From an uncultured Anaerolineaceae bacterium (GTDB taxonomy: Bacteria; Chloroflexota; Anaerolineae; Anaerolineales; DRMV01), in contig CAYLRJ010000067.1 of the NCBI GenBank assembly GCA_964386185.1, forward strand, positions 949 through 64,948: DNA of 64,000 nt. The letters run 5' to 3'. A program made the position numbers and the translations under genes. Shown here one piece after another: positions 7,760-47,385 of the stretch (within the stretch, counting starts at the first letter, position 1; every line of letters starts with the position of its first letter). Below the pieces are notes generated by a model, which saw only the letters and a program-made list of their open reading frames with translations, did not search any database and was not told the origin of the DNA.

Positions 7760-9690
7760 ATGCCGCACGGTTCCAACAGGTTTCTTCCAGTAAACTCAGC
7801 GGCCAGCAGGCCCGCAGCAGCGGCCCTCGGATGGGGCATGGTATGCCCATGGGGCCGGTGGATAAACCGACCGATTTCAAGGGCACCCTGCGCAAGTTGG
7901 CAGCCTATCTCAAGCCCTACAAGGCCAAGATTTTCATTGTGTTCATCTTTGCCGTGGGCTCGACGCTGTTTTCCATTGTGGGCCCGAAAATTTTAGGCAA
8001 CGCTACCACCACCCTTTTCGAAGGGGTGATGGCGCAACTCGCAGGCACTGGCGAGATTGATTTTGCCAAAATTGGCCAAATTTTGCTGGTCGCGTTGTTG
8101 CTTTACGTCTTTTCTTCGGTTTTAGGGTATCTGCAAGGCTGGTTGATGACCGACGTGGCCATGGAGGTCACCTATGCCTTGCGCAAGGCGTTGATGGAAA
8201 AGGTCCATCGGATGCCTTTCCGCTATTTTGATGGCACAACCCACGGTGAGGTGCTCTCGCGGTTGACCAACGACGTTGATACCGTCAATCGCACTTTAAA
8301 CCAGAGCCTCACGCAGATGGTCACCTCGCTGGTGACGGTGTTGGGCATTTTGGGGATGATGCTCTACATCAGTTGGCAGATGACCGTGATTGCCATCCTC
8401 ATTGTGCCCCTTTCCTTTGCTGCGATGGTGGGCATCATCAAGACCTCGCAGAAGTTCTTTGCCCGTCAGCAGCGGTTTTTGGGGCATGTGAATGGGCATG
8501 TCGAAGAGATGTTTGGCGCGCATCTCATTGTCAAAGCGTTCAACGGTGAAGCCAAGAGCATTCGCAAGTTCGATGGCTACAACGAAGCCCTTTACGAAGC
8601 TGGCTGGAAGGCGCAGTTCCTCTCGGGCATCATGCGCCCGCTCATGCGCTGGATTGGCAACTTGGGGTATGTGGCTGTGGTGATTTTGGGCGGCTGGCTG
8701 GCCATTCGCAACCTCATCACCGTGGGCGACATCCAGGCTTTCATCCAATACATGCGTTCATTCACCCAGCCAATCACCCAATTGGCGAACATTTCGAACA
8801 TCCTCCAGCAGACGGTAGCCGCGGCTGAGCGTGTGTTTGACTTCCTGGAAGAGGAAGAGGAAGCCCCCGACCCCGCCGACCCGGTCAAGTTGGAAACCGT
8901 GGCCGGGCGGGTGGAATTCCGCGATGTGCATTTCGGCTATTTGCCAGATAAGATGGTGATTAAAGGCTTTACGGCACGCATTGAGCCAGGCCAGAAGGTG
9001 GCCATCGTTGGGCCTACAGGCGCCGGGAAGACCACCATCGTCAAATTGCTCATGCGATTTTATGATGTCAACCAAGGCGCCATTTTGGTGGATGGCCACG
9101 ATGTCCGCTCGTTTGCGCGGGCCGATTTGCGGCGGATGTTTGGCATGGTTTTGCAAGATACGTGGCTTTTCAATGGCACCATTATGGAAAACATCCGCTA
9201 TGGCCGCTTGGACGCGACCGACGAAGAGGTCATCGCCGCGGCCAAGGCCGCGCGCGCCCATCACTTCATCCGGGCTCTTCCCGAGGGCTACAACTTTGTA
9301 ATCAACGAGGAAGTGACCAACATCTCTCAGGGCCAAAAGCAGCTGATTACCATCGCCCGGGCTATTTTGGCCGACCCGGCGATGCTGATTTTGGACGAAG
9401 CCACCAGTTCGGTTGACACCCACACTGAGTTGCTGATTCAGCAGGCGATGGATGAATTGATGGCCGGGCGGACCAGTTTTGTGATTGCGCATCGGCTTTC
9501 GACCATCCGCAACGCGGATTTGATTTTGGTCATGCGCGACGGCAACATTGTGGAACAGGGCACGCACGACGAATTGTTGGCCAAAGGCGGCTTCTATGCC
9601 GAGCTTTACAACAGCCAGTTTACCCAGCCGCTCACCGAAGACGACGTGCCCCTCGGGCGCGCGCTGGGCTCCGCGCCCAGCCCGGCCTGA
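7756..9690 (+). CDS. ABC exporter, fused permease/ATPase subunit (heterodimer partner)
   Basis: 644 aa. Walker A 'GPTGAGKTT', signature 'ISQGQKQL', Walker B 'MLILDEATS'. ATGA overlap with the upstream subunit. Confidence 0.9.
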   Translation: MNAARFQQVSSSKLSGQQARSSGPRMGHGMPMGPVDKPTDFKGTLRKLAAYLKPYKAKIFIVFIFAVGSTLFSIVGPKILGNATTTLFEGVMAQLAGTGEIDFAKIGQILLVALLLYVFSSVLGYLQGWLMTDVAMEVTYALRKALMEKVHRMPFRYFDGTTHGEVLSRLTNDVDTVNRTLNQSLTQMVTSLVTVLGILGMMLYISWQMTVIAILIVPLSFAAMVGIIKTSQKFFARQQRFLGHVNGHVEEMFGAHLIVKAFNGEAKSIRKFDGYNEALYEAGWKAQFLSGIMRPLMRWIGNLGYVAVVILGGWLAIRNLITVGDIQAFIQYMRSFTQPITQLANISNILQQTVAAAERVFDFLEEEEEAPDPADPVKLETVAGRVEFRDVHFGYLPDKMVIKGFTARIEPGQKVAIVGPTGAGKTTIVKLLMRFYDVNQGAILVDGHDVRSFARADLRRMFGMVLQDTWLFNGTIMENIRYGRLDATDEEVIAAAKAARAHHFIRALPEGYNFVINEEVTNISQGQKQLITIARAILADPAMLILDEATSSVDTHTELLIQQAMDELMAGRTSFVIAHRLSTIRNADLILVMRDGNIVEQGTHDELLAKGGFYAELYNSQFTQPLTEDDVPLGRALGSAPSPA

Positions 9691-9879
9691 CCTCGGCCAA
9701 GGCGTGGCCGCGCCTCAGGTGGCCTAAACCTTGCAAAGCCATGAAGTGCGAGGCGCTTTGTTGCTTGGTGGCCTCGCGAGCCGCTCGCTGGGGTTGGGCG
9801 CGCCGCAGCCCAACCCGTGAAGGTGGGCATCGTGTGCCGCGAGTTCGGTCGCCGCTGAGGCGCGCGAGGCGTGGGTAAG

Positions 9880-9899
9880 CGGGGGCGTTTTCGCCCCCG
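9880..9899 (+). terminator. GC-rich hairpin downstream of ABC operon (possible terminator, no U-tract)
   Basis: CGGGGGCG-tttt-CGCCCCCG, a perfect 8-bp stem with a 4-nt loop. It is followed by gtcttgcg, which is not a proper T-run. Confidence 0.3.
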
Positions 9900-9953
9900 G
9901 TCTTGCGCACGCTGGCCCTGCGAAGCGAGGGACGACCCAAAGCCGCGGTTTTT

Positions 9954-9962
9954 TGATACAAT
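9954..9962 (+). promoter_or_regulatory. Extended -10 element (TGaTACAAT) 6 nt upstream of the PBP-like gene ATG; implies leaderless transcript
   Basis: TG at 9954-9955, TACAAT at 9957-9962, then ctcacc, then ATG at 9969. No SD is possible in the 6-nt gap. Confidence 0.4.
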
Positions 9963-9968
9963 CTCACC

Positions 9969-12725
9969 ATGCCGCATCTTTCGTACATCCTTCGGGCTCG
10001 TCGTCGTCGTGAGGCTGCGGCCCGCCGCCGTTGGAGCACGCGCCTGCGCCCTTGGGGGTTGGCCATCCTCATGGCGCTGGGCTTGGTGGTGGCCGGCGCG
10101 AGCGCGGCCGCGGCCGGAGGCTACGTTTACCTCACAGCCGACTTGCCCAGCCCGGCGGTGCTCCCGGCCTGGTTGGATGCCCCCCACGGGCTTTTGCTGA
10201 CCCCCAGCCGCTATTTGGCCGCCCAGGGGGAACCTTTGGCGGCTGTCGCTCCAGCCCCTCAGCCCGTGACCCTGAACGATTTGCCCGCCTACGCACCGCA
10301 GGCAATTTTGGCCGCAGTAGACCCTGATTTCTATGCCCAACCAGGGTATGCGGGGCATTTTTGGCAAACCGACCTGCCCCCCACGGTGGCTGAACGGTTG
10401 GCCACGCGGTTCCTGCTCTTTGCCGAGCCGGCCTCGACGCGACGCCGTTTGCGAGCCCGCATTTTGGCCGCCCAAATGGTTTCGCAATATGGCCACGACA
10501 AGGTCTTGACGTGGTATCTCAACATCGCAGATTTTGGGCATGGCTTCTACGGCCTTGAGGCTGCCAGCCAAGGCTATCTGGGTAAAAGCGCAGCTGATTT
10601 GAGCCTTTCGGAAGCCGCTTTGCTGGCGGCCATTTTGCCCGATCCGGCTCTCAACCCCTGGGACGCGCCCGAAATCGCGGAACAACGGCGGCAGCAACTC
10701 ATCATGACCATGCTGTCGCAAGCCCGCATCACCGCCCCGCAGAGTCAGGATGCCCTTCCTGACACCCCGCACGTGCTTCCCCCGCCTCAACAAGCGTCGC
10801 CTTCCCCGTTGCTGGTCTTGGCCAAGCAACAAGTGGCCGCCGACTGGCCCCTGCCAGAGCGCGGGCTGACGGTGTTTACATCGGTGGATGCGTCGCTCCA
10901 AGCCCAAGCCGATTGCCTGCGCGAGGCTGTTTTGCAGGCCTCGCCCAACGCCGAAAATCAATGCTCGGCGGCGCGTTTCTTGCCCCCGCTGCTGTTGGAA
11001 CACCCCTTGCCCCCCGATGCTGATTTGGAAGCCGTCGTGTTGGACGCGACCAACGGCAGCATTTTGGCCTTGAGCTTGCCGCAGCCTGAGCCGGCTTCTC
11101 ATCCGCCGGGCAGTGTTTTGGCGCCGTGGGTTTACGCGGTGGCGTTTTCGCGTGGGTTTGCCCCCGCAACCCTGACATGGGATGTCCCGGCCAGCCTGCC
11201 CTCGGGCGTCGAGGCGGCCAACGCCGATGGCGAATTCCACGGCCCCATGCGCCTGCGGGTGGCTTTGGCCAATGATTATCTGGTGCCCACGCTGCATCTT
11301 CTGGACCAGCTGGGGCCGCAGACGGTGTGGGCTACGGCGGCGCGCATTGGGCTCCCGGCTTTGCAGGGCCAAGCCGCGTTGGGGTATGGCTTGCTGCTCG
11401 ATCAAGGCCATCTGAACTTGGTTGAGCTGGCGCACGGCTATGAGGCTTTTGCCACGTTGGGGCGCTGGCGGGGGCTTCCCCACGATGAGGTGTTGACGGC
11501 CGACGTTTTGGCGCAGGTGGTTGACGCCGATGGCAATTTGCGGTTTGATTATCGCCCCGCCCAGCAGGGCGTGTTGAGCCCAGGCTTGGCTTATTTGGTC
11601 ACCGACGTGTTGGCCGACCAGGCGGCCAAGTGGCCTTCGTTGGGGCACCCTAACCCCTTGGAAATCGGGCGTCCGCTGGCCGCGCACGTGGGGCAAAATA
11701 GCGAAGGCGGGGTGTGGGTGGTGGGTTATACGCCGCGGCGGGTGATTGCAGTTTACGCGCAAGGCCGCACTGCGGCGCAAAGCCAAGATGCCGCCCTGGC
11801 CTATTGGCATGCTTTGGCGCGCGAGGCTTTGGCTTCTCAGCCTGTGGAAAGCTGGCCACGGCCGCCCGACATCACCGAGGTCACAGTGTGCGATCCTTCG
11901 GGTATGTTGCCCACGGCCGATTGCCCCAATTTGGTTGATGAGGTGTTTCTGCAAGGCACCGAACCCACCACGGCCGACACCCTTTATCGGCGTGTGGCGG
12001 TGGATCGGGAAACAGGCCTGCGGGCGACAGTGTTTACGCCTCCCCAGTTGGTTGAGGAGCAGGTGTTTATGATGGTGCCGCCTGAGGCCCGGGCTTGGGC
12101 GCAGCAAGCCGGCTTGCCTTTGCCGCCAGAGGGGTACGATTTGGTCACCTTGCCCCAGCCTTCGCCCAATGCAGTGTTGGTTTCGCCGCGCCCCTTTGCC
12201 TATGTCGAGGGGGAAGTGCCGCTGCGCGGCACCGCGGCGGGCGAAGGTTTTGCTTCCTATCGGGTGCAGGTGGGGCAGGGGCTGAACCCGCAAGCGTGGG
12301 TGGTGGTGGCCGAGGGCAAGCAGCCTGTGAAGGATGGCCTGCTGGGGCAGTGGCAAACCAAGGGCCTTAGCGGTCTGTATGCGGTGCAATTGCTGGTGAC
12401 TGACCAACAAGGCAAGGTGACCACGTTTACCACCCAAGTCACCGTGGATGATCGCCCGCCGCGAGTGGCTTTTGCGCGCCCCCGCGAGGCCGACGTGAAA
12501 GCGGCTGCGCAGCAAGGCCGTCTGATTGTGCAGGCTGAGGCCGAAGACGATTTGCGCCTTGCCTGGGTGCGCCTGGAGGTGGACGGCCGAGAAATCGCCA
12601 CTTTGCAGGCGCCGCCTTATCTGTTTGCTGTGCCGCTACAGCCCGGCGTCCATCGGCTGCGTTTGGTCGCGGCTGACGCAGCAGGTAACGAGAGCCAGGC
12701 TGTCCAAAAAATCGTTTTGCCATGA
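9969..12725 (+). CDS. Class-A penicillin-binding-protein homologue (GT51-like + transpeptidase-like + C-terminal Ig-like domains) with substituted catalytic motifs
   Basis: 918 aa with an N-terminal TM anchor. GT51 framework present ('DPDFY', 'KVLTWYLN', 'GLEAASQGYLGK..LSLSEAALLAAILPDP'). TPase framework present ('PPGSVLAPWVYA', 'WVVGYTP'). The catalytic E/E, SxxK lysine, SxN and KTG positions all differ (see findings). Confidence 0.85.
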   Translation: MPHLSYILRARRRREAAARRRWSTRLRPWGLAILMALGLVVAGASAAAAGGYVYLTADLPSPAVLPAWLDAPHGLLLTPSRYLAAQGEPLAAVAPAPQPVTLNDLPAYAPQAILAAVDPDFYAQPGYAGHFWQTDLPPTVAERLATRFLLFAEPASTRRRLRARILAAQMVSQYGHDKVLTWYLNIADFGHGFYGLEAASQGYLGKSAADLSLSEAALLAAILPDPALNPWDAPEIAEQRRQQLIMTMLSQARITAPQSQDALPDTPHVLPPPQQASPSPLLVLAKQQVAADWPLPERGLTVFTSVDASLQAQADCLREAVLQASPNAENQCSAARFLPPLLLEHPLPPDADLEAVVLDATNGSILALSLPQPEPASHPPGSVLAPWVYAVAFSRGFAPATLTWDVPASLPSGVEAANADGEFHGPMRLRVALANDYLVPTLHLLDQLGPQTVWATAARIGLPALQGQAALGYGLLLDQGHLNLVELAHGYEAFATLGRWRGLPHDEVLTADVLAQVVDADGNLRFDYRPAQQGVLSPGLAYLVTDVLADQAAKWPSLGHPNPLEIGRPLAAHVGQNSEGGVWVVGYTPRRVIAVYAQGRTAAQSQDAALAYWHALAREALASQPVESWPRPPDITEVTVCDPSGMLPTADCPNLVDEVFLQGTEPTTADTLYRRVAVDRETGLRATVFTPPQLVEEQVFMMVPPEARAWAQQAGLPLPPEGYDLVTLPQPSPNAVLVSPRPFAYVEGEVPLRGTAAGEGFASYRVQVGQGLNPQAWVVVAEGKQPVKDGLLGQWQTKGLSGLYAVQLLVTDQQGKVTTFTTQVTVDDRPPRVAFARPREADVKAAAQQGRLIVQAEAEDDLRLAWVRLEVDGREIATLQAPPYLFAVPLQPGVHRLRLVAADAAGNESQAVQKIVLP

Positions 12726-12905
12726 GCGGCTGCGGGGAAACTATCTCCCCCAGCCCAGACCGCGGAGCTATGTTGCCGTGGGGCAAGCATGAGAGGCGAG
12801 GTCCCGGCCACCGCGTGCCTGCATGGGCGTTGCGCGCAGGAAGGCTTTCGCCGTCTTTCACCCAGTAACTTCTCGCCCGGATGGGAGTTATACTTTAAAA
12901 GTAAA

Positions 12906-12914
12906 TGTTACAAT
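12906..12914 (+). promoter_or_regulatory. Extended -10 element (TGtTACAAT) in AT-rich patch upstream of the SARP-STAND regulator
   Basis: 12880-12930 is locally AT-rich (ttatactttaaaagtaaatgttacaataagacaatac). The TGnTACAAT matches the motif recurring at other gene starts in this window. Confidence 0.35.
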
Positions 12915-12998
12915 AAGACAATACAGAAAGGCGGCCTAACGCGTGCCCCTGAAATTCATTCGCTTCCCTGCATCTTGCCCCATTGCCTGAGAATACCT

Positions 12999-15900
12999 AT
13001 GCCGTTGGAGATTTTGCTTTTAGGTCCGCCCCAATTACTCGAAGATGGCGCGCCGTCTCTCGAAGCGCGTCAGACTTTGCGCCGCCGTGAACGGGCTGCC
13101 CTCTACCTATTGGCGGCGACCACCGCCCCTATTTCTCGCGACCGCCTGTTGAACATGCTGTGGGGGATTGACGCTGACCCCAGCAAGATCACCAGTGCAC
13201 TTTCGACGACGTTGAGCCGTTTGCGCAGCGTGGTGCCCAAGGGCGCGCTTCAGCGCACCAACACCGGCTACGAGTTAGTGGACCACCCCGATTTGTTCAT
13301 TGACTATCGCGCGTTTTGTGCGGTCTGTCAACATGAGCTGCCGCGGGCGCGGCGCATTCCCCCCCAAGAGCCGCTGGGCGGCGCCTTGGCCGCACGCTTG
13401 CAGCAAGCCCTGGCTTTGTGGCGAGGCGAGTTTTTAGAGGGCTTTGTGCCACCGAAGGGGGCTCCCGAATACGACGATTGGATTGTCACCACCTCCAATT
13501 ATCTGGAAACCCACTACCTGGCTTTGCTCAGCCGATTGGCGCAACACGCCTTTGCCTCTCAAGATTACCCCTTGGCGTTTAGCCTGGCCTCTCGAGCGTT
13601 GGAGCGCTACCCCGGCCAGCCCGAGATGCTTTTGTTGGCCCTCCGCGCGCTGCGCTGGCAGGGGCTCACCGAGCGCGCAAGCGAATTTTTGCGGGTCATG
13701 CGGGCGCGCTATCTGGAAACCGCCGGGCAAGATTACGACAGCGAGACCCTCCACCTGGCTCACAACCTCCTCAAGCGGCGCCAGCGCGACCCCAAACAGC
13801 AGGAAACCACCCCCTGGAAAGAACGCCAAGCCCTCAAAGTGCCCTTTGTGGGGCGAAAAGGCCTGTTAAACGACCTGGAACGCCAGGCCCAAAAAGGCGG
13901 GGTCGCACTGATTTTAGGCGACACCGGCCAAGGCAAAACCCGCCTCTTGCAGGAATTCATCCAACGCGTGCGGGATGACCATCGGGTCGTGACCACCGTC
14001 TGTCACCACGGCGAGCGAGCCCTGCCCTTTGCCCCGCTCTTGGGCGCCCTTCGCCGCCAGGTCAACCCCGAAGAATGGTCTCAAGTGCCGGAGCCCTGGT
14101 GGCCTTACCTGTTGCACCTCTTCCCCGAAGCCCAACGCTATTTGCCCTATGTGCCCTTGGAGCATCCCCCCGCGCCGCTCCAAAGCCAGCTGATGGAAGT
14201 GCTTCGGCAGATTCTCCTGGTGATGGCCCGCGAAGCCCCTCTGGTGCTCTGCGTGGATGATGCCCAATGGAGCGATGCCGCCACGGTCGAAGCCCTGCTC
14301 TACTTTTTAGAGCGTGGCCCCTTTGGGCAAGACGGCCATTTCATGCTCATCACCGCGCGGCGTGAGACCTTCCGTGAGAGCCCCTTGGGCGAGCGTCTGT
14401 GGCCCTTGGTGCAAGAGGGCAACATTGCCACCATCACCCTGGAGGGCCTCACCAAAGAAGAGGTCGCTATTTTGGCCGAGAGCGTGTTGGCACGACGGCT
14501 GGACGACGAAGAAGCCGAAAACCTCTGGCGCTCGGCTGTGGCCGGAACGCCGCTTTACGTCTTGGAAATGTTGCGGCACCAAGTGGAAACCGGCAACGCG
14601 GACCGGCCCGTGCGCGAATGGCCAATGGCGCACCGCCTGGTGCCTTTGTTGGAACAACGCCTGGACCAACTCCCCGACGACGAGCGCTTGGTGCTCTCTT
14701 ACGCGGCCTTGCAAGAGAGCAGTTTCCCCTGGCAGGTGCTCAAAGAAGCCACCGGCCTGGACGAAGACCGCTTGGTCGCCGCCCTGGAAGGGCTGGAAGC
14801 GCGCGGCTGGATTCAGCGCAGCGACCATCAATCAGGCCGCATCCTTTACACCTTTGTCCATGACAAACTGCGAGAAGTGGTTGACCGCCACATCAGTCCG
14901 TTGCGACGGCAGAGCATCCACGGCAAATTGGCGCAAGCCTGGGAAACCGTGCTCGACGACGCGGCCCAGAGCCGCGCCGCGGTGATTGCACGGCACTATC
15001 AAGAAGCCGGCGAAGCCCGCCGCGCCTTCCAATGGTGGATTGCCTCAGCCCACCACGCTTTGGAATTGGGCGTCGCCCGTCAAGCCCACGACGCGTTTTA
15101 TCATGCCGAGCGTGTGCTCTTTCAGGAAGATTCCACCGCCGGCTTCGACATCCATGAGATTTGGGCGCTCTACGCGGAGTGGGCCTTGTTGGCGGCCGAC
15201 ACCATGGATTGCGACACGCTGAAACACATCGAACAATCGCTGCTGCGTTTGGCCGAACTGCGGCGCAGCCCGGTGTTGCGGAGCAGCGCCCTGAACGCCC
15301 AGGCCCATCGGCTCCGTTTGCACGACCACCTGGCCGAAGCCCTGGACTGCACCCAAAAAGCCTTGCGCTGGTTGAAATCAGTGCCCAAGAGCGCTTTGCC
15401 CCAGGTGGAAATTTGTACCCATCACGCTACCCTGCTCTATTTGCAGGGGCGGGTGGGCGAATCTATCGAATGTTTGAACAAGGCCCTGGAAATTGCCAAA
15501 GACCTGGATTCTCCCCTCGCACCGCTGTTTTTGGGGAGTGTCTATTACCAGCGGGCAGTGGCTGACACCCTGAGTTTTCGCCCTGACCGGGGGCTGCAAC
15601 AGGCCAACAAAGCCTTGCAGGCCTACCACGCCAGCCGGCGGGTCTTTGGCGTGGCAGACGCCTTGGGCATTCGTTCCCTGGCCTTGTTTATGTTGGGGCG
15701 CTACCAAGAAGCGCTCACCGATTGCCAAGAGGCCCGTGAGCGCGCGGTGCTTTTTGACAAGCGCCGCATGTTGGGGTATCTGAACGCTTATTGCGCCTTC
15801 CCCCTGAGCGCGATGGGGCGCTGGGCCGAGGCCTGGGAAGCCGCCAACGAAGCCCTGACCTTGGGGAAGGAACAATTCCACAACGCGGCCCAAGGCTTGG

Positions 15901-16547
15901 CGTTGCGCATCATGGGCGGCATGTTTTTCATGCTCGAAGATTGGTGCACCGCGCTGGCTTACTATTACGAGAGTTTCCAATACAGCGAGGGGCTTTTCCT
16001 GCGCTCTGACTTGCTCTTCCGGCTGGGGATTACGTTTGCTCGGTTGGGCGACCTGCCCCAGGCCGAGAGTTTCCTCGCTTGCGCCATCAAACAACAAGAG
16101 CAAGCCATCCGCCATGTGTGCCCTTTGGCGCGGCTTTCGCAAGCCGAGGTGCTCATCAATCGCGGCAAAATCAAAGAGGCGTTTGCCATCTTGCACACGG
16201 TGTTGCCAGAGGCTCAGGAACACGGCCGCGAGGAAGTGGTTTGCGGGGTGTATTTCCAAGAGGCGCGGGCCTATTTGGCCCAAGGCCAAACAGTGCAGGC
16301 CCAGCGGGCAGCTCGGCGCTTGGTGCATGCCAGCCGGCGCATTGGCTATGTTTGGCTTGAACTCCAAGGGTTGGAGATGCTCCAGCAGATGCAGCAACTC
16401 ACGTCAGAAGAACATCGGCGTTTGCAGCATCTTTATGGCTACATTGCTCGCCTGACGACTCACCCCCATTTGGGCGCCGCGGCGCGCAAGTTTTTGGCCA
16501 AGCGCGGATTACAGGAAGAAAACCTCCCCCAACCCCAGACGCTCTAA
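12999..16547 (+). CDS. SARP/BTAD-family transcriptional regulator fused to AAA/STAND ATPase and TPR-like repeats (AfsR-like)
   Basis: An OmpR-type wHTH followed by BTAD forms the N-terminus. Walker A 'GDTGQGKT', Walker B 'LVLCVDDAQW', and about 600 aa of helical-repeat C-terminus. Start moved to ATG 12999 (MPLEILLLGPP..), because the track's upstream 70 codons cross the AT-rich promoter region. Confidence 0.85.
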   Translation: MPLEILLLGPPQLLEDGAPSLEARQTLRRRERAALYLLAATTAPISRDRLLNMLWGIDADPSKITSALSTTLSRLRSVVPKGALQRTNTGYELVDHPDLFIDYRAFCAVCQHELPRARRIPPQEPLGGALAARLQQALALWRGEFLEGFVPPKGAPEYDDWIVTTSNYLETHYLALLSRLAQHAFASQDYPLAFSLASRALERYPGQPEMLLLALRALRWQGLTERASEFLRVMRARYLETAGQDYDSETLHLAHNLLKRRQRDPKQQETTPWKERQALKVPFVGRKGLLNDLERQAQKGGVALILGDTGQGKTRLLQEFIQRVRDDHRVVTTVCHHGERALPFAPLLGALRRQVNPEEWSQVPEPWWPYLLHLFPEAQRYLPYVPLEHPPAPLQSQLMEVLRQILLVMAREAPLVLCVDDAQWSDAATVEALLYFLERGPFGQDGHFMLITARRETFRESPLGERLWPLVQEGNIATITLEGLTKEEVAILAESVLARRLDDEEAENLWRSAVAGTPLYVLEMLRHQVETGNADRPVREWPMAHRLVPLLEQRLDQLPDDERLVLSYAALQESSFPWQVLKEATGLDEDRLVAALEGLEARGWIQRSDHQSGRILYTFVHDKLREVVDRHISPLRRQSIHGKLAQAWETVLDDAAQSRAAVIARHYQEAGEARRAFQWWIASAHHALELGVARQAHDAFYHAERVLFQEDSTAGFDIHEIWALYAEWALLAADTMDCDTLKHIEQSLLRLAELRRSPVLRSSALNAQAHRLRLHDHLAEALDCTQKALRWLKSVPKSALPQVEICTHHATLLYLQGRVGESIECLNKALEIAKDLDSPLAPLFLGSVYYQRAVADTLSFRPDRGLQQANKALQAYHASRRVFGVADALGIRSLALFMLGRYQEALTDCQEARERAVLFDKRRMLGYLNAYCAFPLSAMGRWAEAWEAANEALTLGKEQFHNAAQGLALRIMGGMFFMLEDWCTALAYYYESFQYSEGLFLRSDLLFRLGITFARLGDLPQAESFLACAIKQQEQAIRHVCPLARLSQAEVLINRGKIKEAFAILHTVLPEAQEHGREEVVCGVYFQEARAYLAQGQTVQAQRAARRLVHASRRIGYVWLELQGLEMLQQMQQLTSEEHRRLQHLYGYIARLTTHPHLGAAARKFLAKRGLQEENLPQPQTL

Positions 16548-25730: not shown

Positions 25731-27704
<1,974 letters not shown>

Positions 27705-27721: not shown

Positions 27722-29947
27722 ATGGCGCTTCAACCTGGTGACCTGCTACGCGAACGTTATCGCATTCTTGCCGTCCTTGGCCGAGGAGGGATGGGCTCAG
27801 TGTATCACGCGCTGGATACCATCCTCAACATCGAAGTGGCCATCAAAGAAAACATCTTCGTCGCCCGGGAATATGCTGAGCAGTTCCAGCAAGAAGCCCG
27901 CCTCTTGGCCAGCCTTCGGCACCCCAACCTGCCCCGGGTAACCGACTACTTTGTCCTCAAAGACCAGGGCCAATACCTGGTCATGGATTACATCGAGGGG
28001 GAAGACCTCAAAACGCGGGTCGAGCGAGAAGGCAAAATCAGCGTCCAGGAAGCCGTCATCATCGGCTTGGCCTTGTGCGACGCGCTGGAATACCTCCATA
28101 GCCAAGACCCGCCGGTGATCCATCGCGACATTAAGCCGGGCAATGTTCGCATCACCCCTGAGGGCCATGTCTTCCTGGTAGATTTTGGCCTGGCCAAAGT
28201 TGGCAGTTGGGACCAAAACACCGTCACCGGCGCGCAAGCCGTCACCCCCGGGTTCTCACCGCCCGAGCAATACGGCACATCCCACACCGCGCCCTATTCC
28301 GACATTTACAGCCTGGGTGCGACGCTTTACATGGCCCTGAGCGGCGAACCGCCGCCCGACGCGTTTGAACGGGCGTTGGACCACGCCGAGCTCAAACCGC
28401 TGGATGAAGTCAACCCCGAAGTCCCGCCGGCCTTGGCGCAAATTATCGCGACGGCCATGGCTTTGCAGCCGACCGACCGCTTTGCCTCGGTGGCGGAAAT
28501 GCGGGCTGCGCTGTTGAGTTTGAACCTGGTGCCCGAGCAGCAACAGCACCTTCACGATCACGCTTGGGAAATCACCCCCGCGCCCCAGGCGTCCACGCCC
28601 CAGGCGACCAATTGGGGCAGGAGCAATACCCGCCCCTTGCCCGCCCTGCACGGCGCGGGCGCCTCGGCTGAGGAAGACGATGACGCCTTTGCGGGCGAGC
28701 CGCCTTCGTCTCCCCCGCCGGCGGGGCCGGCCGCGTGGTTTGCAGGGGGGCGTCGGCGAGGGCGGCGCATCGCGGCCCTGCTCCTTTTGATTGCCGCTGT
28801 GTTGGTCGCTTGGTACGCAGCCAACCCGGCCAGCATCGGGCGGATGCTTGACCCCTTGCAGCGGTCCGTGGCAGCCTTTGTGGCTGCACGTTTGCCTGCG
28901 ACCCCAGCCCCGTGGCCGACCGTGGCGCAGCCTACCCCAACCCCCCAAAGCCTGCCGACAACCGTCGGGGTTGGGCTGTTGCCTACCGCCACCCCCACGC
29001 TCACCCCTTCGCCCACTGCCACCCCTCAACCTACCCCTACCCTCACCCCAACCATCACCCCCACCCCAGCCCCCACACCCTTAGGCGGCGGCAGTGGACA
29101 ATTGGCCTTTGCCTCGGTGACCCGCGGCGCAGTGCAAATTTGGCTGACAGACTTGCAAGGCCATCTGTTGAAACAATTGACCGATCGGCCGGGGGGCGCG
29201 TGCCAGCCGGCCTGGGCGCCCGACGGCCAATCGTTGGCCTTTATCGCCCCTTGCGGCGTCAATGCCATGCGCTATCCTAACGCCCAAATCTATTTGCTTC
29301 ACCTCGAAACCGGCCAAGTCGAAGAACTGGTGCCACCGGATTGGGGCGGCTACGACCCAGCCTTTTCACCCGATGGCAAATACCTGGCCTTCACCAGTTT
29401 GCGCAGCGGCATCCCGCAGTTGTATGTCTTGAACCTGCAAACCTATCAAATCTTCCCCTTGTTGGGCACCGACGTGGAAGGCGCTCAGCCGGCTTGGTCG
29501 CCCGATGGCCGCTGGCTGGCGTTTGTGGGCAACCTCAGCAGCGTCTCGCGCATTTGGCTCTTGCCCTTTGACCCGGGCGCGGAAACGTTGCCCACCCCGC
29601 AACCCTTCTCGCGCAGCGGCAACAAAGCCAATACGCATCCCACCTGGGCGGGCAACGGCACCTTGTTGGTCTATAGCCAACTCAACCCCAACAAGCCCTT
29701 GCCCTACCTGGTGCGCGCCCCCTTAGAACAAGGCGGCCTCTTAGAAACCCCCATTACAGTGGTGGGCACAGCCATGAAAGAACCCATGGCGTCGCCCGAT
29801 GGTCGTTGGCTGGTGTTTGAAGGCTGGCAGGGCGACAATCACGACATCTACATCATCTCCGTAGATGGCGCCCAATTGAGCCGTTTGACCACGCAAGGCA
29901 CCTTCGATTTTGACCCGGCCTGGCGGCCGACGGTGCCTCAGCCCTAA
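27722..29947 (+). CDS. Ser/Thr protein kinase with TM segment, Pro/Thr-rich linker and C-terminal TolB-like beta-propeller
   Basis: Hanks motifs 'GRGGMGSVY', 'VAIK', 'HRDIKPGNV', 'DFGLA', 'SPPE'. TM 'IAALLLLIAAVLVAWY'. C-terminal repeats of the 'P.WSPDG..LAF' type. Confidence 0.9.
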   Translation: MALQPGDLLRERYRILAVLGRGGMGSVYHALDTILNIEVAIKENIFVAREYAEQFQQEARLLASLRHPNLPRVTDYFVLKDQGQYLVMDYIEGEDLKTRVEREGKISVQEAVIIGLALCDALEYLHSQDPPVIHRDIKPGNVRITPEGHVFLVDFGLAKVGSWDQNTVTGAQAVTPGFSPPEQYGTSHTAPYSDIYSLGATLYMALSGEPPPDAFERALDHAELKPLDEVNPEVPPALAQIIATAMALQPTDRFASVAEMRAALLSLNLVPEQQQHLHDHAWEITPAPQASTPQATNWGRSNTRPLPALHGAGASAEEDDDAFAGEPPSSPPPAGPAAWFAGGRRRGRRIAALLLLIAAVLVAWYAANPASIGRMLDPLQRSVAAFVAARLPATPAPWPTVAQPTPTPQSLPTTVGVGLLPTATPTLTPSPTATPQPTPTLTPTITPTPAPTPLGGGSGQLAFASVTRGAVQIWLTDLQGHLLKQLTDRPGGACQPAWAPDGQSLAFIAPCGVNAMRYPNAQIYLLHLETGQVEELVPPDWGGYDPAFSPDGKYLAFTSLRSGIPQLYVLNLQTYQIFPLLGTDVEGAQPAWSPDGRWLAFVGNLSSVSRIWLLPFDPGAETLPTPQPFSRSGNKANTHPTWAGNGTLLVYSQLNPNKPLPYLVRAPLEQGGLLETPITVVGTAMKEPMASPDGRWLVFEGWQGDNHDIYIISVDGAQLSRLTTQGTFDFDPAWRPTVPQP

Positions 29948-43977: not shown

Positions 43978-45918
43978 ATGGACCCGGTAGAAGAAATCAA
44001 AAACCGCCTCGATATCGTGGACATCGTCTCCGAGACCGTGGACCTGCGCAAAACGGGCAAAAACTATATCGGCTTTTGCCCCTTCCACGATAACAAACGA
44101 ACCCCTGCTTTTGTGGTCTTCCCGGAGACGGGCACTTGGCGCTGCTTTGGCTGCAACGAAGGCGGCGATATTTTCACGTTTGTGATGAAGCGAGAGGGGT
44201 GGGATTTTCGGCAGGCGCTGGAGCATTTGGCCGAGCGGGCTGGGGTTACGCTGGAGCCTCGGCGCCCCGAAGATGCAGCCCAGCGAGAAGCCCAGCAGCG
44301 CTTGTATGACTTGATGGAAGAGGCGGTGGTTTTCTATCGGCACCATTTGCACACCACCGCAGGCCGCATGGCGCTCGATTATCTCCACCGCCGCGGCCTC
44401 ACCGACGAAACCATCGAAATTTTCGATTTGGGGTATGCCCCTCAGGCTTGGGAGGCCGCACGGGCCTACTTTACCGGCAAGGGCTATACCGACGAAGACC
44501 TGCTGGCCGTGGGTTTGCTCACCCGTCGTGAAGACGGCCGCATTTATGACCGCTTCCGCCATCGGGTGATGTTCCCCATTCGCGACGCGCGCGGCCGCGC
44601 GGTGGGCTTTGGCGCCCGCACGTTAGACCCCGACGGCGTGCCCAAATACCTCAATTCGCCTCAGACCGAAATCTTCGACAAAAGCCGCCTGCTCTACGGC
44701 CTCGACAAAGCGGGCAAGGCCATCCGCCAGCGCGACCAAGTGGTCATCGTGGAAGGCTACATGGATGTCATCGGCCTGCACCAGGCCGGCTTCCCCAACG
44801 CGGTTTCGCCGATGGGCGTGGCGCTCAACGAAGGCCAACTGCGCACCCTCAAGCGCTACACCCGCCACATGGTGTTGGCCCTCGACCCTGACCCCGCGGG
44901 CATCCGCGCCACACTGCGGAGCATGGAAGTTGCCCGAGAAGCCCTTTCAGAAGCCGATGGTTTTCGTTTTGACCCCCGCGGCCTGTTGCGGCAGGAAAAC
45001 CGCCTAAAGGCCGACCTGCGGGTGGCGCTGCTGCCCGAAGGCAAAGACCCCGACGAAATCGCCTTGGCCGACCCCGCAGCCTGGGAGCGCGTCCTGAACA
45101 GCGCCCAGCCCATCATCCTTTTCATCATGCACACCCTGGCTGCCGAAATGGACTTAGACGACCCCAAAGCCAAAGCCGAGCTCGCCGCGCAGATTTTGCC
45201 GCTGATTGATGAAGTGGCCAACCCCATCGAGCAGCAGGCCTACCTGCAAAAACTCGCGGCCCTGCTGCGGATGGATGAAGCCACCCTCTTGGCCTGGCGC
45301 CCACCTGCGCAAAAACGCCGTCGGCGGACACCACGGCGGGCCAACACCCCTGCCCCATCACGCACGCGGACGCCTGCGCGGCCCACCCCCTCGGCCTGGG
45401 CGCACACCTCGGCGTTGGTCAACCGCCTGGCCGCGCGGGCTTTGGGGCTGTTGTTGCGAGACCCCCACCTGCGGTTTCGTATAGACCGCGCTCTGCGGAT
45501 GTATGAACTGCCGCCGTTACACGCGGATGATTTCCCAACGGCCGCCCAACGGGCTATTTTTGAAGCATTGGAAGCCGCCGTCGAGCAAGAACAGCGTGAG
45601 CCCGCCGACGACGTCTTGGCCCGCCTTTCCTTGCCCCTGATGGCCGAAGCCGACCGGTGTTTGCAGGAAACCGCCTCGCTGGTTTCATCGCCCGACCGCT
45701 GGGCAGAAGAACTGTTCCACGCCGTCGTCCGCCTGCGCTTGGAGCGCCTCAAGCAAGATTTGACCCAACTTCAATTTTTGATTGCCGAGGCAGAGCGCCA
45801 ACAAGACCCCCTGCTGCCACACTATCAACAACAATGGCGTGAGGCTTCGCGCCGCCGGCTGTTGTTAGACAAAGCCTTCAAACACGGCTTCCGCGCCGCC
45901 CTTTCTGCCCAAACCTGA
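43978..45918 (+). CDS. dnaG: DNA primase
   Basis: Zinc finger 'CPFHDNKRTPAFVV....WRCFGCNEGGD' and TOPRIM 'VIVEGYMDVI' with 'LALDPDPAG'. Confidence 0.95.
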   Translation: MDPVEEIKNRLDIVDIVSETVDLRKTGKNYIGFCPFHDNKRTPAFVVFPETGTWRCFGCNEGGDIFTFVMKREGWDFRQALEHLAERAGVTLEPRRPEDAAQREAQQRLYDLMEEAVVFYRHHLHTTAGRMALDYLHRRGLTDETIEIFDLGYAPQAWEAARAYFTGKGYTDEDLLAVGLLTRREDGRIYDRFRHRVMFPIRDARGRAVGFGARTLDPDGVPKYLNSPQTEIFDKSRLLYGLDKAGKAIRQRDQVVIVEGYMDVIGLHQAGFPNAVSPMGVALNEGQLRTLKRYTRHMVLALDPDPAGIRATLRSMEVAREALSEADGFRFDPRGLLRQENRLKADLRVALLPEGKDPDEIALADPAAWERVLNSAQPIILFIMHTLAAEMDLDDPKAKAELAAQILPLIDEVANPIEQQAYLQKLAALLRMDEATLLAWRPPAQKRRRRTPRRANTPAPSRTRTPARPTPSAWAHTSALVNRLAARALGLLLRDPHLRFRIDRALRMYELPPLHADDFPTAAQRAIFEALEAAVEQEQREPADDVLARLSLPLMAEADRCLQETASLVSSPDRWAEELFHAVVRLRLERLKQDLTQLQFLIAEAERQQDPLLPHYQQQWREASRRRLLLDKAFKHGFRAALSAQT

Positions 45919-45939
45919 GCCTTGTTTTCGAGAGATGCC

Positions 45940-47385
45940 ATGACCACGGAAGAAACGCTGGAACCCACTGCCGAAGATTTAGCCGCCGAAGAGGCCTACA
46001 CCCGCGGTTGGGGCGACGAGGTCGATAGCGACCCAGTGTACCTCTACCTTCGGGAAATTGGCCAGGCCAAGCTGCTCACAGCCGATCAGGAATTTTGGCT
46101 CGCGACCATGATCGCCGCGCACAAACAGGTGCAATGGCTGCAAGCCCACCCCAAAGCGCGGGGGCAGGGCGAAACCACCCCCCGGCGGTTGTATTGCGCG
46201 CTTTATACCGAAATGGTGACGGCCTGGCAGCGGGCGTTGGAAGACGTCGCCCGCTGGGGCTGCGAACCCCCCGATTTTGCCCTCCTGACCGCCGAAGCCC
46301 AAATGCTTCACCAAACCTGGCAGAGCGAAACCCCTTCCTACGTCCGGGCGTATCTCAACAATGGCTCATGGGGCAAAGACCCCTTTTGGGATGGCGTTGC
46401 CGCCCAGGTCGTCGCCGTGTTCATCGCGGTCTATGCCCTGCCCGCCGAAGTCGCCGAAGCCTTGGTGCGGTTTCATACCAAACGCCAGCGCTTGCCGTCC
46501 GAGCGCACGTTCCGCCGCTACCTCCCCGACGATGAAGTGCTGCGGGCCGAATTGACAGCCATTGCCGCGCGCGCCGAAGTCGCCCGGACGGCTTTGATCC
46601 GCTCTAACCTGCGGCTGGTGGTCAGCGTAGCCAAACGCTACGTAGACCGTGGCGTGCCCTTGTTGGACCTCATCCAAGAGGGAAATCTGGGGCTGTTGCG
46701 CGCGATTGACAAATTCGACCCTGCCCGCGGCTACAAATTCAGCACCTACGCCACCTGGTGGATTCGGCAGGCCGTGACCCGAGCCATCGCTGAGCAAGCG
46801 CGCACCATTCGGGTGCCGGTCCACATGATTGAGTCGTGGCAAAAATTGCGGAAAATCCAACGCCAACTCACGCAGCGCTTGGGCCGCGAACCCACCTTGG
46901 AAGAAATCGCCTTGGAAAGCGGCTTCCTGAGCGACGAAGAGGCCAAAGCCATTCGCACAGCCCTCGAAGAAGGCCAGCCCCTTTCCCCCCATCTGCAACA
47001 GCGGTGGCGTTTTGCCACAGGCAAGGTGCGCAAGGTGTTTCGCGCCACAGAAGAGCCCCTCTCGCTGGAAAGCAGCATGGGCGACGAAGAAAACAACGCC
47101 CTGGGCGATTTTGTGGAAGATACCGAAACCCTGCGCCCTCTGGACCAAGCCACCCGAGACATGCTGCGCGAGCAAGTGCAAAACGTTTTAGCTGCCCTGA
47201 CCGAACGCGAGCGCCAGGTGTTGGAACTCCGCTTTGGCCTGCTCGATGGCAAGTCGCACACCTTGGAAGAAGTCGGGCGTTATTTCAACGTCACGCGCGA
47301 GCGGGTGCGGCAAATCGAAGCCAAAGCGTTGCGCAAACTCCGTCACCCTTCCTACAGCCGTCACCTGCGGGATTATCTGGAATGA
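45940..47385 (+). CDS. rpoD: RNA polymerase primary sigma factor (sigma-70/SigA)
   Basis: Region 2 '[53 protein letters not shown]' and region 4 '[29 protein letters not shown]'. ATG 45940 is preferred over the TTG at 45922. Confidence 0.95.

Follow-up and report, generated by a model that had tools for sequence, protein, structure and literature searches.

Class-A penicillin-binding proteins (aPBPs) are among the most studied bacterial enzymes, serve as antibiotic targets, and are generally treated as active synthases. Here, an aPBP-like protein is described that keeps the fold of both enzymatic domains, the GT51 glycosyltransferase (GT) domain and the transpeptidase (TP) domain, and has lost key catalytic residues from each; it is encoded in a 64,000-nucleotide stretch of DNA from an uncultured Anaerolineaceae bacterium (assembly GCA_964386185.1, contig CAYLRJ010000067.1, positions 949 to 64,948), referred to below as the window. 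The nearest named aPBP is PBP1C (PbpC) of Escherichia coli, likewise a class-A protein with an extra C-terminal β domain and a functionally obscure TP domain, which keeps the GT51 catalytic residues and the SxxK, SxN, and KTG motifs. PBP1C is mainly viewed as an auxiliary GTase whose TP domain is without a clear physiological role (PMC6131605). In the window protein, in contrast, both sets of residues are lost, and the score against the PBP1C model TIGR02073 lies far under the cutoff. The nearest functional precedent comes from the LytM factors (EnvC, NlpD, ActS, and DipM), homologs of peptidoglycan enzymes with lost catalytic residues, which are conserved and bind and regulate other wall enzymes (PMC10336132, PMC8416486). 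These factors differ from the window protein in their unrelated fold (LAS metallopeptidase) and in that they regulate hydrolases, whereas for the window protein we infer a regulatory role. A dead paralog that activates its own enzyme also has a precedent (PMC5201418).

The register of the catalytic motifs in the window protein was taken from phmmer and hmmsearch alignments to the solved PBPs 7u4h, 5u2g, 3zg7, and 4oon, all with high posterior probabilities, and was cross-checked in MAFFT alignments with canonical aPBPs, 23 of them diverse and 120 and 123 from two Chloroflexota families. The catalytic columns are conserved at 100% in both Chloroflexota families and at nearly 100% in the diverse set. 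At these columns, the GT51 site of the window protein lacks both glutamates, that is, the general base of motif 1 and the Glu of motif 3, as well as the motif-3 Lys, and the GGSTITQQ string of motif 2 is absent; the TP site lacks the SxxK Lys, the Ser and Asn of SxN, and the Lys and Thr of KTG (Table 1). Five motif residues are still present, namely D118, T139, R159, S382, and G575. An earlier note on this DNA, aligned by eye, had claimed that every catalytic position is replaced, which holds for the two GT glutamates and the key TP residues but not for these five. Its register for motifs 1 and 3 and for SxxK agrees with both kinds of alignment, motif 2, which it read as P-P-T-V-A-E-R-L, aligns as L-P-P-T-V-A-E-R, and the codons it cited for V117 (GTA), A163 (GCC), and S382-V-L-A385 are all right. 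For SxN, it had named A-N-D-Y (residues 434–437), the right region, of which the exact equivalent is D436-Y437-L438, whereas its KTGT equivalent, V574-G-Q-N, was set one residue off, the alignments giving H573-V574-G575-Q576. The distances from S382 measure 54 residues to the SxN equivalent and 191 to the KTGT equivalent, nearly the same as the approximately 55 and 192 estimated by eye.

Profile searches, proposed in the same note as a check on its alignment, likewise place noncatalytic residues at the catalytic columns. Pfam Transgly (PF00912) matches residues 149–248 only, with the C-terminal half of the profile and at 84 bits, and Transpeptidase (PF00905) gives no match to the window protein at E ≤ 1; the intact sister protein P0291, used as a control, scores 191 bits over the full length of Transgly and 65 bits with Transpeptidase. 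The scores against TIGR02074 (PBP1A family, 193 bits), TIGR02073 (PBP1C, 159.7 bits, aligned to residues 379–821), and BiPBP_C (PF06832, 19.9–23 bits) are under the respective cutoffs of 508.75, 494.2, and 26.8. None of the curated NCBIfam models claims the protein, and neither the equivalog score nor a C-terminal BiPBP_C domain places it in the PBP1C subfamily. Of the features that define class-A PBPs, the two folds are found, whereas the motif-1 Glu, the motif-3 Lys/Glu, the motif-2 string, and the SxxK/SxN/KTG set are missing. The GT51 transglycosylase fold is recognized by Pfam, by Foldseek, and by a match of the family profile to the GT domain of Aquifex PBP1a (2oqo/3nb6, E 1e-40), and the penicilloyl-serine transferase fold is recognized by a phmmer alignment of residues 172–596 to Listeria monocytogenes PBP4 (3zg7) and by Foldseek matches to TP domains. 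An AlphaFold2 model of the whole protein, built from a 50-sequence alignment, has a predicted local distance difference test (pLDDT) score of 91.6 and resembles full-length aPBP structures with Foldseek E-values of 1e-24 to 1e-29, foremost Staphylococcus aureus PBP2 (3dwk, E 8e-29), followed by the PBP1a proteins of Haemophilus influenzae and Acinetobacter baumannii and by E. coli PBP1b, with which a structural comparison had been advised. The matches to 3dwk, 2olv, 3vma, and 5u2g span both GT and TP.

The same replacements are common to a large clade. In a one-genome-per-species scan, in which the best 80 of 581 candidates were inspected (the 581 may include ordinary aPBPs), full-length or near full-length loci were found in at least 80 species genomes, all from Anaerolineae or Chloroflexota, and the carriers include the cultured Anaerolinea thermolimosa IMO-1. 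A word-indexed search returned about 60 full-length relatives with 36–100% identity from metagenome-assembled genomes (MAGs) of Anaerolineales and Chloroflexota. A profile was also searched exhaustively against 1.84 billion representatives of 50%-identity clusters, and the top 150 matches were taken; all of these score above 810 bits, 143 have an ordinary length, and some 135 are degenerate. Column counts over 143 clade sequences, set against the 23 diverse aPBPs, reveal that the motif-2 Ser, the motif-3 Lys, the SxxK Lys, and both the Ser and the Asn of SxN are found in none of the 143. The motif-1 Glu remains in 6 (the rest having A, L, S, V, I, or T), compared with 23/23 and 120/120 in canonical aPBPs, and the KTG Thr in 10. 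Other columns are less uniform: the motif-3 Glu is present in 85/143 and is Ala in the subclade of the window protein, the KTG Lys is present in 114/143 and is His in that subclade, the SxxK Ser position holds Ser in 94 and Thr in 45, and the SxN Ser position holds Asp in 138.

In neighbor-joining bootstraps, the degenerate clade is monophyletic in 100/100 and 60/60 replicates, and the subclade of the window protein is recovered in 60/60, so the replacements, whose conservation among orthologs had been proposed as a test, are shared by a whole monophyletic clade. The TP site died once, in the ancestor of the clade, and the GT glutamates disappeared piecemeal, lineage by lineage, with the subclade of the window protein the most degenerate. 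A few clade members retain both GT glutamates (L030, L031, P0032, P0247, and P0311); since P0247 stands in the same SSB–translin–Cas4-like–NAD kinase–RecN context as many fully degenerate members, it is an ortholog. In addition, two partial degenerations, P0315 and P0344, are nested inside the intact sister clade and therefore arose independently. P0344, whose cluster is assigned to Ca. Promineifilaceae / Thermofonsia, reads T..Q at SxxK, G.N at SxN, and VTG at KTG and keeps the GT glutamates. Loss of catalysis thus seems to be recurrent in this subfamily of aPBPs.

The members that retain both glutamates raise the question of whether the protein could be a TP-dead but GT-active aPBP that uses alternative acidic residues, in a role like that of PBP1C. 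This would fit with the motif-3 Glu of the 85 sequences, with an acidic residue at position 118 in 132/143, and with the mainly extra-GTase role assigned to PBP1C (PMC6131605). The window protein itself, however, has neither glutamate (V117 and A163), and across the clade, position 117 varies widely among hydrophobic or small residues. Nor does position 118, where 10 members have Gln, offer a conserved substitute base; the motif-2 Ser and motif-3 Lys are absent throughout, and Pfam Transgly finds no match with its N-terminal half. Residual glycosyltransferase activity is, on this evidence, very unlikely.

The closest intact proteins are P0291, P0328, P0349, P0356, and their family (P0291-type), labeled in their sources as 'penicillin-binding protein' or 'transglycosylase domain-containing protein'. 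These proteins, of about 950–1020 residues and with 33–36% identity to the window protein, have the same series of an Arg-rich tail, a single transmembrane (TM) helix, GT51, linker, TP, a C-terminal domain, and two Ig-like modules, together with the same four invariant cysteines (C316, C332, C641, and C652) and a VCxxSGLLPTxxCP motif. They differ from it in that ED, RKxxE, SxxK, SxN, and KTG occur in every sequence examined and both Transgly and Transpeptidase match in full, and the window protein has evolved faster than they have in the GT, linker, and TP domains. The four-Cys subfamily, with dead and intact members together, is supported by 100/100 neighbor-joining bootstraps, and C316 and C332 are both found in every clade member counted (141/141) as well as in the intact sister proteins. 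Because the tail, TM helix, four cysteines, motif, and Ig modules are common to the intact sister, they are ancestral and not novelties of the dead clade; for the cysteines, an origin within the dead clade is ruled out by the sister family having them. MAGs named Anaerolineales, Anaerolineaceae, or Anaerolineae are the source of many of the intact sister proteins. The window protein is predicted from these comparisons to be a dead paralog of an active enzyme.

A second kind of canonical Chloroflexota aPBP, the P0063-type lipoproteins, is known from MAGs of Anaerolineae, Anaerolinea sp., and Caldilineales, so that the inventory of intact aPBPs called for previously has yielded two kinds in the same order and genus. 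P0063-type proteins share with the window protein the GT51 and TP domains and a long C-terminal extension (about 930–1000 residues, approximately 28–30% identity), but they have a lipobox signal peptide (…LLSGC…) in place of the tail and TM helix, lack C316 and C332, and keep the catalytic residues at 100%. As lipoproteins without these two cysteines, they are ruled out as the direct parent, the true sister being the P0291-type. Judging by the lipobox, they would be anchored by a lipid, an unusual arrangement among aPBPs; their JGI label is 'penicillin-binding protein 1C'.

Purifying selection on the gene is strong in every domain, and its inheritance across Anaerolineales has been vertical. 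The ratio of nonsynonymous to synonymous substitution rates (dN/dS, or ω), calculated with NG86 against two 84%-identical orthologs, is 0.09 overall, 0.09–0.10 in the GT-like domain, 0.13 in the linker, 0.07 in the TP-like domain, and 0.09 in the C-terminal part, values that are approximate, with dS of about 1.3 being near saturation, though far from 1. At all of the 82 loci examined, uninterrupted open reading frames (ORFs) of at least 500 residues match the query. Together with the monophyly of the clade, these results support the earlier proposal that the gene is maintained and not decaying. A young pseudogene, a misplaced register, or sequencing errors might have been suspected from the alignment by eye, in which KTG was off by one, and from the GC-rich region with its longer antisense ORF. 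Such decay or artifact is refuted, with next to no probability left to it, by the identical protein found on three independent assemblies, the low ω, the intact ORFs, clade members down to 34% pairwise identity, the high-posterior registers to solved structures, the pLDDT of the model, and a conserved promoter box. The operational features of a pseudo-enzyme, that is, a retained fold, missing catalytic residues, purifying selection, and conservation across species, are all found here.

Constraint is not evenly distributed along the protein. Expressed as a ratio of mean pairwise identities, the dead clade over the intact sister family, it amounts to 0.67 for the N-terminal part of GT with the jaw, 0.75 for the GT head, 0.67 for the linker, 0.68 for TP, 1.00 for C-terminal domain 1 (mean pairwise identity of 0.56 in both groups), 0.95 for the first Ig-like module (Ig1), and 0.75 for the second (Ig2). 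Compared with the active sister, constraint is thus relaxed in GT, linker, and TP and undiminished in C-terminal domain 1 and Ig1; within the dead clade, C-terminal domain 1 is the most conserved domain and Ig2 the least conserved extracellular module. Such a pattern could be taken to mean that GT and TP are ballast and that the protein is an envelope anchor or spacer, whose Ig/FN3 modules tether the sheath, the S-layer, or neighboring cells of the filament and have nothing to do with synthesis. In line with this, only C-terminal domain 1 and Ig1 match the conservation of the active sister, and a model built for the last 299 residues alone (pLDDT 93.9) resembles in Foldseek the tandem FN3/BIg modules of adhesins, S-layer proteins, and glycoside hydrolases, for example 3pdd and 2yn3. 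The active sister, however, conserves the same modules equally, and their role is therefore compatible with a working synthase; moreover, the GT-like and TP-like domains, with mean pairwise identities of 50% and 45%, are under strong purifying selection, which is unexpected for ballast. A purely anchoring function is accordingly considered rather unlikely.

Forty-three positions with a conservation of at least 95% among the intact proteins vary in the dead clade, including E117, the glycine-rich TP loop 478–481, and residues around KTG, and other residues have been newly fixed, namely D436 (97%), R428, R164, and E153, with R162 likewise conserved in the clade. In canonical PBPs, the equivalents of positions 382, 436, and 573 adjoin one another in the active site, and the Ser of SxN contacts the Lys of KTG. 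Since D436 replaces this Ser, a salt bridge between D436 and K/H573 that fills the former active site is plausible. The same residues could instead belong to a re-tooled enzyme, in which the TP-like pocket (S/T382, D436, and K/H573, a Ser-Asp-His triad in the subclade of the window protein) or the GT-like cleft catalyzes a novel reaction, for example as a hydrolase or amidase-like enzyme, on peptidoglycan or another envelope polymer. An Asp fixed in 138/143 is a conserved new residue and not random decay, 139/143 sequences have Ser or Thr at position 382 and 133/143 have Lys or His at position 573, and the ω of the TP-like domain indicates the strongest selection among the domains. On the other hand, Ser and Thr interchange at the position of the putative nucleophile, and some representatives have Ala, Pro, or Gly there; in a wider set of representatives, about one-third have Gly, Ala, or Asn at position 436 and many have a hydrophobic residue at position 573; and the TP domain as a whole is less constrained than in the active sister (the ratio of 0.68 given above). 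We know of no enzyme family with a Ser-Asp-His/Lys arrangement on the PBP fold. A new catalytic activity is therefore regarded as improbable.

We consider it reasonably probable that the window protein is a membrane-anchored, extracytoplasmic pseudo-enzyme that neither polymerizes lipid II nor cross-links stem peptides and acts by binding, as a scaffold or regulator. Such a bitopic protein would sit in the membrane beside the wall-synthesis machinery, and its conserved C-terminal modules would hold a partner or the wall itself. The GT-like and TP-like clefts, remodeled yet ordered, probably contribute to binding, because R159 is kept beside the clade-conserved R162/R164 and D436 stands beside K/H573. 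Candidate partners would be the active sister aPBP, a pair of a shape, elongation, division, and sporulation (SEDS) protein with a class-B PBP (SEDS–bPBP), or a hydrolase, and candidate wall ligands a glycan strand, lipid II, or the stem peptide; the outcome may be that peptidoglycan synthesis is scaffolded or regulated, as the analogy with the dead LytM factors and 'prozyme' paralogs suggests. Several observations weigh against this interpretation. The conservation of S382 (as Ser/Thr), D436, and K/H573 is compatible with a re-tooled catalytic site, and the near-saturated dS blurs the estimates of selection. The co-occurrence with the active sister rests on MAG taxon names, at the level of order and genus, and ORF clustering over the 82 loci detected no wall-synthesis partner among the conserved neighbors.

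A more specific form of the binding role, which is put forward only tentatively and is doubtful at present, is that of a core component of the wall machinery, a pro-zyme or allosteric partner of the active sister aPBP or of a SEDS–bPBP pair that would time or place peptidoglycan synthesis. If true, the pro-zyme would fill in filamentous Anaerolineae the role that the unrelated activators LpoA/LpoB have in Proteobacteria, and it would be the first known case in which a regulator of peptidoglycan synthesis descends from the synthase, both of whose active sites would have become binding sites.

In full-text literature searches, neither a doubly dead aPBP nor the present Chloroflexota family was found described, and nothing relevant on the biology of Chloroflexi PBPs came up; the clade constitutes a pseudo-enzyme branch of class-A PBPs that is previously undescribed in the literature searched. 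The existence of a large, anciently maintained, doubly dead family implies that the aPBP scaffold has a selectable noncatalytic function, and the family offers a natural separation-of-function variant for those aPBP roles that go beyond catalysis, such as partner, substrate, or wall binding and positioning. The graded series from intact proteins through TP-dead members with intact GT residues to doubly dead ones forms an evolutionary trajectory that can be tested experimentally. A warning for annotation follows as well: the dead proteins now carry labels such as 'penicillin-binding protein', 'PBP1A family', and 'membrane carboxypeptidase', and would be counted as synthases in inventories of the Chloroflexota wall and as GT51 in surveys of carbohydrate-active enzymes.

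The architecture of the window protein is summarized in Table 1. ORF calling agrees with the earlier note that the 918-residue frame is uninterrupted, and the N-terminal TM anchor is supported by the sequence and by the model, in which residues 4–56 form one long helix; a type II topology is predicted, with the remainder of the PBP-like protein beyond the membrane. C316 and C332 in the linker probably form a disulfide. Where two C-terminal Ig-like domains had been noted, the models give three β-rich modules (residues 626–732, 733–830, and 831–918). The first of these, C-terminal domain 1, aligns with the C-terminal extension of 7u4h, and this region is common to 7u4h and the window family, although 7u4h is without the Cys pair. 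Matches of Ig2 to Pfam are weak and under the cutoffs, and there are profile matches to 3pdd, 9kvu, and 3pe9. The best sequence match in PDB is 7u4h, a GT51 + TP protein of 921 residues deposited as 'PBP1a from Chlamydia trachomatis'. Class-A PBPs are usually described as absent from Chlamydia, so the source label of 7u4h looks odd.

Table 1. Coordinates of the class-A PBP-like gene, its protein features, and other landmarks in the window
Feature	Coordinates	Strand	Residues and details	Basis
−10-like box	9953..9962	+	TTGATACAAT (TACAAT at 9957-9962), extended form TGnTACAAT, ends 6 nucleotides before ATG	
Coding sequence, degenerate class-A PBP paralog	9969..12725, including stop codon	+	918 residues	ORF calling, profile searches, model
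Arg-rich cytoplasmic tail and single TM helix	9969..10133	+	tail 1-28 (ILRARRRR...), TM helix 29-55	sequence, model
GT51-like (transglycosylase) domain	10137..10763	+	57-265	partial Pfam Transgly match, alignments to 5u2g/7u4h, column counts
GT motif 1	10317-10319 (V117)		E-D replaced by V117-D118	
GT motif 2			GGSTITQQ replaced by L-P-P-T-V-A-E-R	
GT motif 3	10455-10457 (A163)		R-K-x-x-E replaced by R159-R-L-R-A163	
Interdomain linker	10764..11078	+	266-370, with C316 (10914-10916) and C332 (10962-10964)	
Transpeptidase-like domain	11079..11843	+	371-625	alignments to 3zg7/7u4h, Foldseek, column counts
TP motif S-x-x-K	11112-11123		S382-V-L-A385	
TP motif S-x-N	11274-11282		D436-Y-L438	
TP motif K-T-G-T	11685-11696		H573-V-G-Q576	
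C-terminal domain 1	11844..12164	+	626-732, VCDPSGxLPTxDCP motif	invariant columns, 7u4h alignment
Cysteines of C-terminal domain 1	11889-11891 (C641), 11922-11924 (C652)	+		
Ig/FN3-like β-sandwich 1 (Ig1)	12165..12458	+	733-830	models, Foldseek
Ig-like β-sandwich 2 (Ig2)	12459..12722	+	831-918, Big_7 / BiPBP_C / PKD-like	
gyrB	25776-27704			
dnaG	43978-45918			
rpoD	45922-47385			
dnaA	57168-58589			

The Ig2 type of module also occurs outside the aPBPs, in proteins of 3,200–5,900 residues (P0209, P0212, P0220, P0225, P0305, and P0355) with 23–50 matches each to the Ig2 / Big_7-like part of the profile, which are presumably repeat adhesins. On the strand opposite to the PBP-like gene, an antisense ORF of 969 residues (9606-12515, −) exceeds the real gene in length and covers nearly the whole coding sequence, so that greedy longest-ORF calling selects it over the true gene. 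Its GC content by codon position (0.72/0.53/0.70) does not distinguish it from the sense frame (0.71/0.50/0.71), and it most likely represents a shadow ORF of the GC-rich sequence.

Upstream of the start codon, a hexamer of the form TAnnnT, often TGTACAAT or TGATACAAT, ends 5–9 nucleotides before the ATG at 44/74 loci, compared with 3.4% of random positions, and it is present at L001, L003-L006, L008, L010, L013, L016, and other loci, even where protein identity is about 40%. The box at 9953-9962 probably serves as the promoter for an mRNA with no leader or almost none, and its conservation supports the annotated start and a promoter belonging to the gene itself; leaderless mRNA may be a wider feature of Anaerolineae genes. 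A generic scan for promoters and terminators found nothing useful on the + strand of the window, and an Rfam scan of the window returned no RNA element. Within the 279-nucleotide spacer that separates the PBP-like gene from an ABC-exporter gene ending at 9690, there is a perfect GC-rich hairpin, GGGGGCG-TTTT-CGCCCCC (9881-9898), without a following T-run, which could terminate or attenuate transcription of the upstream operon.

The conserved neighbors of the gene are lineage-specific housekeeping genes, coding for RecN, NAD kinase, FolP, an HtrA-like protease, and an extracytoplasmic function (ECF) sigma/anti-sigma pair, and as ORF clustering over the 82 loci gave only such neighbors, the idea of a conserved operon partner was rejected. 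The neighbors found in the window, MarR with the ABC-exporter and BTAD/AAA/TPR, are shared as a set only with the 84%-identical relatives. The downstream gene (12789-16547) encodes a large BTAD/AAA_16/TPR (SARP/AfsR-like) regulator, with a mechanical ORF of 1252 residues and public gene calls that begin at about 12999 (1182 residues); its homologs lie directly upstream of the PBP-like gene at several distant loci, L013, L042, L045, L047, L059, and L066, an arrangement that is recurrent but not universal. The window as a whole represents an origin-proximal part of the chromosome, with dnaA, gyrB, dnaG, rpoD, and priA. No other wall synthase was seen within it, and the LysM and SH3 proteins reported previously were identified as LysM and SH3_3 proteins. 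Adjoining gyrB, the gene at 27722-29947 encodes a Ser/Thr protein kinase fused to Tricorn/PD40 β-propeller domains.

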